From NCBI RefSeq assembly GCF_029227855.1, contig NZ_CP074356.1: a DNA stretch of 64,000 bases; one strand, written 5' to 3'. A model generated the notes under the pieces. That model was not told where the DNA came from and searched no databases. It saw only the letters and a program-made list of their open reading frames with translations. This document shows positions 59,741-61,239 of the stretch, piece by piece (position 1 is the first letter of the stretch; each line of letters opens with the position of its first letter). The DNA is from Escherichia coli. Lineage in GTDB: Bacteria > Pseudomonadota > Gammaproteobacteria > Enterobacterales > Enterobacteriaceae. The position numbers and the translations under genes were made by a program.

Positions 59741-59891
59741 ATGAAAACCTCTCTGTTTAAAAGCCTTTACTTTCAGGTCCTGACAGCGATAGCCATTGGT
59801 ATTCTCCTTGGCCATTTCTATCCTGAAATAGGCGAGCAAATGAAACCGCTTGGCGACGGCTTCGTTAAGCTCATTAAGATGATCATCGCTC
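59741..59891 (+). pseudogene. dctA: dctA 5' fragment: first 50 codons of the C4-dicarboxylate transporter, then the frame is lost
   Basis: [50 protein letters not shown] matches the DctA N-terminus; downstream the frame reads [16 protein letters not shown]-stop, which is not DctA. Confidence 0.8.
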
Positions 59892-61239
59892 ATGTCTACG
59901 CCATCAGCGCGTACCGGCGGTTCACTCGACGCCTGGTTTAAAATTTCACAACGTGGAAGCACTGTCCGTCAGGAAGTGGTTGCCGGGTTAACAACGTTTC
60001 TGGCGATGGTCTACTCGGTCATCGTCGTTCCAGGTATGTTGGGTAAAGCAGGCTTCCCGCCTGCGGCAGTTTTCGTTGCAACCTGTCTGGTTGCCGGACT
60101 CGGTTCTATCGTGATGGGTCTGTGGGCTAATCTGCCGTTGGCGATTGGTTGCGCCATCTCCCTGACGGCATTTACCGCATTCAGCCTGGTGCTGGGGCAA
60201 CATATTAGCGTACCTGTCGCGCTGGGTGCCGTGTTCCTGATGGGTGTGCTGTTTACGGTAATTTCTGCCACGGGTATCCGTAGCTGGATTTTGCGCAACT
60301 TGCCTCACGGTGTGGCGCACGGCACGGGGATCGGTATCGGTCTGTTCCTGCTGCTCATTGCCGCTAATGGTGTCGGTCTGGTGATTAAAACCCGCTTGAT
60401 GGTCTGCCCGTTGCGCTGGGTGATTTCGCGACCTTCCCGGTGATTATGTCACTGGTAGGTCTGGCGGTGATCATCGGCCTGGAAAAACTGAAAGTCCTGG
60501 TGGCATTCTGCTGACCATTATCGGTATCTCAATTGTCGGTTTGATCTTCGATCCTAACGTCCATTTCTCCGGCGTTTTCGCCATGCCTTCATTGAGCGAT
60601 GAAAACGGCAATTCACTGATTGGCAGCCTGGACATTATGGGCGCGCTGAATCCTGTAGTCCTGCCAAGCGTTCTGGCGCTGGTGATGACGGCAGTATTTG
60701 ATGCCACCGGAACTATCCGTGCCGTCGCCGGCCAGGCGAACCTGCTGGATAAAGATGGGCAGATCATCGACGGTGGGAAAGCACTGACCACTGACTCCAT
60801 GAGCAGCGTTTTCTCTGGCCTGGTGGGTGCAGCTCCGGCAGCGGTATACATCGAGTCTGCGGCGGGTACGGCGGCGGGCGGTAAAACCGGTTTGACGGCT
60901 ATCACCGTTGGCGTGCTGTTCCTGCTGATTCTGTTCCTCTCTCCGCTCTCTTACCTCGTTCCGGGGTATGCAACGGCTCCGGCGCTGATGTACGTTGGCC
61001 TGCTGATGCTGAGCAACGTGGCGAAAATCGACTTTGCTGATTTTGTTGATGCGATGGCGGGTCTGGTTACGGCGGTATTCATCGTGCTGACCTGTAACAT
61101 CGTAACAGGCATCATGATCGGCTTCGCGACTCTGGTGATTGGTCGTCTGGTTTCCGGCGAATGGCGCAAGTTGAACATCGGTACGGTCGTTATCGCCGTG
61201 GCGCTGGTGACCTTCTATGCGGGTGGCTGGGCTATCTAA
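59892..61239 (+). pseudogene. ghxP: NCS2/AzgA-family purine permease (GhxP/YjcD-like), split by two 1-nt indels
   Basis: Track ORFs 59892-60443 (frame 0) and 60541-61239 (frame 1) are contiguous parts of one permease; frame changes at about 60387-60393 (A/C run) and 60495-60497 (C run). Confidence 0.75.

Follow-up and report, generated by a model that had tools for sequence, protein, structure and literature searches.

The large inversions known from E. coli arise through rrn operons, IS elements or prophages, and the rrnD–rrnE inversion of W3110 is a natural example that spans the origin of replication. We know of no classical end joining (Ku/LigD) in this species. Two further systems, neither of them biological, bear comparison with an abrupt junction: misjoins that stem from chimeric reads, and contigs whose start has been moved by software, as is done by dnaapler as well as by Circlator. 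When an assembly leaves behind small contigs that are redundant with the chromosome, these tend to be low in coverage and poorly polished. Circlator rearranges contigs without dnaA such that they start at the Prodigal-predicted gene nearest the contig's middle (PMC4699355). Where dnaA is present, that gene is set on the forward strand (PMC4699355), and we assume forward-strand placement in the Prodigal case too.

The window considered here, by which we mean the whole 64,000-nt stretch of DNA that was analysed, comes from an E. coli contig (NZ_CP074356.1, assembly GCF_029227855.1) in which the 5′ part of dctA runs directly into ghxP (yjcD). Comparison with reference genomes leads us to regard this join as most probably an artefact of assembly or record building, and not a rearrangement of the chromosome, when the two routes to such an artefact that are described below are taken together.

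When the window, native dctA and native ghxP were compared three ways, the breakpoint fell at a single phosphodiester bond, 59891/59892 (unstranded), a blunt join with 0 nt shared and 0 nt inserted. To its left, window positions 59741–59891 (plus strand) match nucleotides 1–151 of native dctA exactly (50 codons plus 1 nt), with the native upstream region retained. Past position 59891, native dctA continues C-CTGTC (CTGTCATC), whereas the window reads ATGTCTACGCC, with ATGTCTACGCCATCAGC corresponding to the first bases of ghxP. Specifically, the C at 59891 belongs to dctA (native ghxP has T), the AT at 59892–59893 belongs to ghxP, and the A at 59892 opens the ghxP ATG. The sequence to the right of the join consequently opens on a forward-strand predicted gene start, and gene callers pick the ATG at 59892 as the start of a 183-aa product. 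An earlier sequence-only reading had described an abrupt passage from dctA codon 50 to a yjcD-like permease, at or within a few nucleotides of a start codon; the permease gene is ghxP, and the join falls exactly on its ATG. A random breakpoint and direction would land on the first base of a start codon with a probability of ~4,624/(2 × 4.77 Mb), or ~5e-4. At the join, ghxP has lost both its native Shine–Dalgarno sequence (AGGGGA) and its promoter. The list of open reading frames contains a chimeric ORF of 66 aa (59741–59941, plus strand), comprising DctA residues 1–50 followed by 16 residues read out of frame across the ghxP start. The last complete gene in the well-supported left flank is hmsP (pdeK, yhjK; 57570–59558, plus strand), an intact 662-aa ORF that is annotated as hmsP in NCTC8623 and EC23-1020.

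The same reading had noted the lack of any repeat, IS or rRNA sequence at the join, and this was sustained when the window and the native loci were compared; Rfam matches revealed no rRNA anywhere in the window. Up to 1 kb from the breakpoints, the native dctA and ghxP loci share no homology beyond chance 10–12-mers, none of which occurs at the breakpoints themselves. Comparison of each side with its native locus, proposed earlier as a way to fix the exact breakpoint and to look for microhomology, yielded the single bond given above and 0 nt of exact microhomology at the crossover. Around the breakpoint, the parental loci agree in register at 10/20 and 18/40 positions (empirical P 0.015 and 0.006, respectively, for a measure chosen post hoc). 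Across window positions 59851–59931, the dctA and ghxP loci are more alike in register than random pairs of loci, which may be chance. Separately, we considered a restriction-site chimera at the GATC/TGATCA sequence (59880–59885), and rejected it because the join lies 5–6 nt past the site.

Consensus accuracy changes at the same bond, a point that the sequence-only reading missed. To the left, the alignment of window positions 1–59891 with E. coli NCTC8623 consists of two overlapping blocks that contain 0 gaps and substitutions only; positions 35000–59891 are 100.0% identical to several genomes, and positions 59300–59891 are identical to many E. coli genomes. To the right, window positions 59892–64000 differ from the best E. 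coli alleles by 7 indel events (8 bases) and 1 substitution, or nine bases in all. These best alleles are found in GB089, EC23-1020 and at least 18 others at equal score, and represent a common phylogroup-B1-type allele, relative to which the right flank contains no ordinary SNP. The 59,891 nt to the left of the join thus contain 0 indels, whereas 7 homopolymer indel events and 1 run-merging substitution occur in the 4,109 nt to its right. Under an even distribution of indels, all 7 would land in the final 4,109 nt of the 64,000 with a probability of (0.064)^7, or ~4.5e-9. A chimeric read or misassembly would be expected to show an abrupt shift in consensus accuracy where the pieces meet, and such a shift is what we observed.

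The sequence-only reading recognised a yjcD-like permease gene followed by yjcE-like and yjcF-like genes to the right of the join; the identities proved right, with yjcF on the minus strand, and what escaped that reading is that all three genes are frameshifted in the window. The frameshifts are caused by the homopolymer indels. Reading from its ATG, ghxP (59892–61239, plus strand) carries two of them, A5>A4 at 60387 and C3>C2 at 60496, and yjcE (61390–63038, plus strand) carries three, T2>T1 at 61399, G3>G2 at 61785 and T3>T4 at 62380. The 3′ part of yjcF (63192–64000, minus strand), a gene cut by the end of the window, has two indel sites, T3>T5 at 63257–63258 and A5>A4 at 63739. The sole substitution is intergenic (63137, unstranded), where a C between runs of A4 and A3 is read as A, converting AAAACAAA to A8 and so fusing the two runs into one. 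Every one of the 7 indels changes the length of a homopolymer, and 6 of the 7 are located in runs of at least 3, which make up just 16% of bases. Natural gene decay, by comparison, is characterised by substitutions that are far more numerous than indels; homopolymer indels unaccompanied by an ordinary SNP therefore present the profile of sequencing error in a consensus of few reads. Natural pseudogenisation of the Shigella type was rejected for the right flank, given that the left 59.9 kb has no indel or IS and the right flank no ordinary SNP. The indel density of the right flank (~1.9 gap bases per kb) is in line with that of two visibly error-prone public assemblies at the same locus (2.3 and 2.6 per kb in L004 and L011, respectively); cleaner ones have 0.1–0.4.

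The first of these frameshifts has a wider record. The A5>A4 change in ghxP (window 60383–60387), which yields the 183-aa GhxP, is recorded in 32 blocks of public assemblies. Assemblies with the 183-aa product include error-prone ones (L004 and L009–L012) together with clean-looking ones of other lineages (L005, L006 and L008), and some of the assemblies with A5>A4 are otherwise clean, with 1–4 gap bases in about 10 kb and intact neighbouring genes. The proposal that the recurrent 183-aa GhxP is purely a signature of error consequently holds only in part, since L005, L006 and L008 look clean. Besides reflecting a common sequencing error, A5>A4 in ghxP may mark a site prone to natural slippage, or a pseudogene allele particular to certain lineages. 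The change alone is no proof of error, and it is the seven indels taken together that carry the argument. Look-ups by exact product found no match on record for three error-specific ORFs (244, 169 and 143 aa), and the one for the 212-aa YjcE fragment matched only genes cut by contig ends, which is uninformative.

The native arrangement of the two loci is seen in EC23-1020 (a 4.77-Mb circle), where the plus strand carries dctA at 213.6 kb and the minus strand carries ghxP at 4,354–4,356 kb. The two genes are thus ~0.62 Mb apart, in opposite orientation, and flank the start of the record, which we take to adjoin dnaA and oriC, as on the K-12 map. These positions agree with the earlier statement that dctA and yjcD lie about 0.6 Mb apart on opposite sides of oriC, and their location on opposite strands in reference genomes upholds its suggestion that the strands are arranged as expected at one of the junctions of an inversion spanning the origin. 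The breakpoints of such an inversion would presumably be ~256 kb and ~369 kb from oriC on the K-12 map, making it moderately symmetric. A wrap-around of a circular record, or a scar of internal rotation within one contig, was also considered and rejected, as the orientations of the flanks misfit a single collinear chromosome.

EC23-1020 provides the best match for window positions 1–25000 and, with the nine error positions set aside, a tied-best match for the right flank. Judged by these alignments, both flanks fit one phylogroup-B1-type strain background, and for this reason the join looks intragenomic, unlike contamination from another sample. Compared with any of the references, the strain is a mosaic; in the right flank, for instance, 21 SNPs separate it from NCTC8623. 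The lpfABCDE long polar fimbria operon, present in EC23-1020, is absent from the yhjX–eptB interval of the window (~31566–31663), and NCTC8623 likewise does without it; this difference is an ordinary presence/absence island. Elsewhere, window positions 41920–43292 contain three tandem ldr/rdl type I toxin–antitoxin units of ~483 bp that are 95–96% identical to one another, with rdlD antitoxin RNAs on the minus strand at 42021–42086, 42504–42569 and 42987–43052, and the same three copies are present in NCTC8623 and EC23-1020. Matches to sok/hokA, the cspA thermoregulator, tRNA-Pro, RtT and naRNA4 (REP-derived) at 21627–22488 and 33685–34104 are ordinary here, and an ES036 sRNA match at 2839–2881 also looks ordinary.

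We found no precedent for the adjacency of dctA and ghxP. An 801-nt query across the junction had no place with at least 80% coverage in 5,426 complete E. coli genomes, and in 5,425 of these 5,426 its two halves matched separate places. An exact scan with a 38-mer spanning the junction found it absent from GTDB species-representative contigs and JGI metagenome contigs, the exact product of the 66-aa fusion ORF had no entry in the public gene-position index, and a literature search on dctA, yjcD and inversion found no paper. A natural rearrangement fixed in a lineage would place the same adjacency in relatives, where we found it in 0/5,426 complete genomes, with 0 matches in the contig collections.

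A model for the artefact combines these features. The sequence to the left of and including 59891 would be an accurate, high-coverage consensus of the yiaK-to-dctA region of a phylogroup-B1-type E. coli; that from 59892 onwards would be a low-accuracy copy of ghxP–yjcE–yjcF, drawn from one or a few long reads of the same kind of strain; and the two pieces would have been attached non-biologically, during assembly or record building. This could have come about by either of two routes. In the first, two fragments would be blunt-ligated during library preparation, and the resulting chimeric long read would extend the contig past the point in dctA; normal reads would then cover the left side up to the join, and beyond it only the very few chimeric reads, or a single one, would contribute. 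The left consensus would be perfect to its last base because normal reads cover it up to the join, and the immediate, uniform and homopolymer-biased indel level of ~0.2% would follow from the tail being supported by chimeric reads only. An indel rate of ~0.2% is what a single circular-consensus read, or a very shallow consensus, delivers. In the second route, 59891/59892 would be the boundary of two records set back to back with no spacer, the second being a small contig with poor polishing, redundant with the chromosome, whose start software had moved to that of a predicted gene; such rotation would be the reason that the right piece starts on the first base of a start codon. The second route explains the ATG hit, and the first better explains the flawless left end. 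What the sequences show directly are the exact blunt breakpoint, the lack of repeats, the absence of the adjacency from the other genomes searched and the step in indel rate; either route, like the sequencing technology, is inferred. A benchmark of long-read assemblers found that the assemblers are largely unaffected by chimeric reads (PMC6966772), and the first route therefore needs an unlucky case.

Several observations run against an artefact. Not even the last base of the left piece is in error, which is atypical of the end of a long-read contig unless it has been polished with short reads; the flanks are oriented such that leading-strand polarity is maintained to either side, as is expected of a natural inversion that is tolerated; and the weak in-register similarity (18/40, P ~0.006, post hoc) is not predicted by a join made in silico. 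The latter two observations would be accommodated by a genuine oriC-spanning inversion of ~0.62 Mb, arising from repeat-independent (illegitimate) recombination between the interior of dctA and the last base ahead of the ghxP ATG, which we nonetheless consider unlikely. Such an event would leave dctA inactive and ghxP without its promoter and Shine–Dalgarno sequence, and the window would show one of two junctions; the reciprocal junction is expected to read AAGAAAACATCCCCTGAGAG... joined to CTGTCATCTTTTGTACC, that is, AAGAAAACATCCCCTGAGAGTTTAATTTTC joined to CTGTCATCTTTTGTACCGTCGTAACGGGCA, and would lie outside the window, which contains one junction. The strand pattern is right for this explanation, with dctA and ghxP on opposite strands around the dnaA-proximal start of the record, as are the moderate symmetry around oriC and the fit of both flanks to one B1-type background, and the parental similarity, albeit a post hoc measure, could mean a similarity-assisted event. 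However, an inversion gives no account of a drop in accuracy exactly at the join, nor of 7 homopolymer indels across three consecutive genes without an ordinary SNP; it would have to proceed with 0 nt of exact microhomology at the crossover, leave an adjacency seen in 0/5,426 complete genomes and in none of the other collections, and hit the ATG by a coincidence of about 5e-4. A mediator in the form of an rrn operon, IS element or prophage is also absent at the join, and a repeat-mediated inversion, which would show an inverted repeat of one of these kinds at the breakpoint, shows none there. It is similarly improbable that a wild B1-type strain carries a blunt inversion at dctA codon 51, in which case the errors of the right flank would be a separate failure of polishing.

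The step in quality would be reproduced by a real but minor structural variant, either a duplicate of ghxP–yjcE–yjcF inserted in dctA or a rearrangement in a sub-population, assembled as a low-coverage alternative path and left unpolished since its reads align at two locations. Polishing would also be poor for a segment that is duplicated or present at low frequency, and the similar B1-type background of both flanks is consistent with this origin, but no mobile element, target-site duplication or repeat is present at the join, a second boundary was not seen within the window, and the genomes searched offer no precedent; with a prior probability below that of a chimeric read, we judge a minor variant to be quite improbable. 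An engineered junction, made for example by recombineering with a homology arm that starts at the ghxP ATG, would readily place the join on the first base of a start codon, as is often the case in designed constructs. Yet we found no scar, marker, FRT, lox, att or foreign base, and the fusion is out of frame and lacks the ghxP Shine–Dalgarno sequence, with no obvious design purpose; neither a scar or marker nor a designed in-frame or regulatory fusion marks the junction as engineered. In addition, the background is that of wild B1-type isolates and not of K-12 or B laboratory strains, the error-laden right flank would be left unexplained, and the literature search found no paper linking dctA, yjcD and inversion, so that deliberate construction appears highly improbable. 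The sequence-only reading had left the choice between an engineered rearrangement, an illegitimate one and a chimeric misassembly. Its last option is the one favoured, by the accuracy step; the absence of a scar and the loss of frame speak against the first, and an illegitimate inversion, which is improbable, would explain neither that step nor the exact hit on the ATG.

Taken at face value, the record would introduce a false large inversion, a false truncation of dctA and three false pseudogenes (ghxP, yjcE and yjcF). Indel rates on either side of a synteny break, measured against close relatives, serve as a simple, read-free flag for such misjoins. If, instead, the join were true, it would represent a rare, repeat-independent inversion spanning the origin, in a strain predicted to be unable to use C4-dicarboxylates aerobically, and an unusual case of homology-independent, large-scale rearrangement in a bacterium without Ku/LigD end joining.

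Set beside the described systems, the junction in the window is like the artefacts of chimeric reads and misjoins in linking two unrelated single-copy loci bluntly and without a repeat, in pairing full accuracy on one side with few-read homopolymer indels on the other, and in having an adjacency that none of the other genomes searched shares. It is unlike a random chimera in lying exactly on a start codon, which is expected about 1 time in 2,000. Software-rotated contigs (Circlator fixstart, PMC4699355) provide the closer likeness in this respect, as the right piece opens on the first base of a forward-strand predicted gene, although rotation of the Circlator type fits only if 59891/59892 is a record boundary without a spacer. 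With natural origin-spanning inversions, the junction shares breakpoints on opposite sides of oriC and the maintenance of leading-strand polarity; the known inversions, however, recombine long inverted repeats, whereas the join in the window, made with neither repeat nor microhomology, is the very point at which sequence quality shifts.
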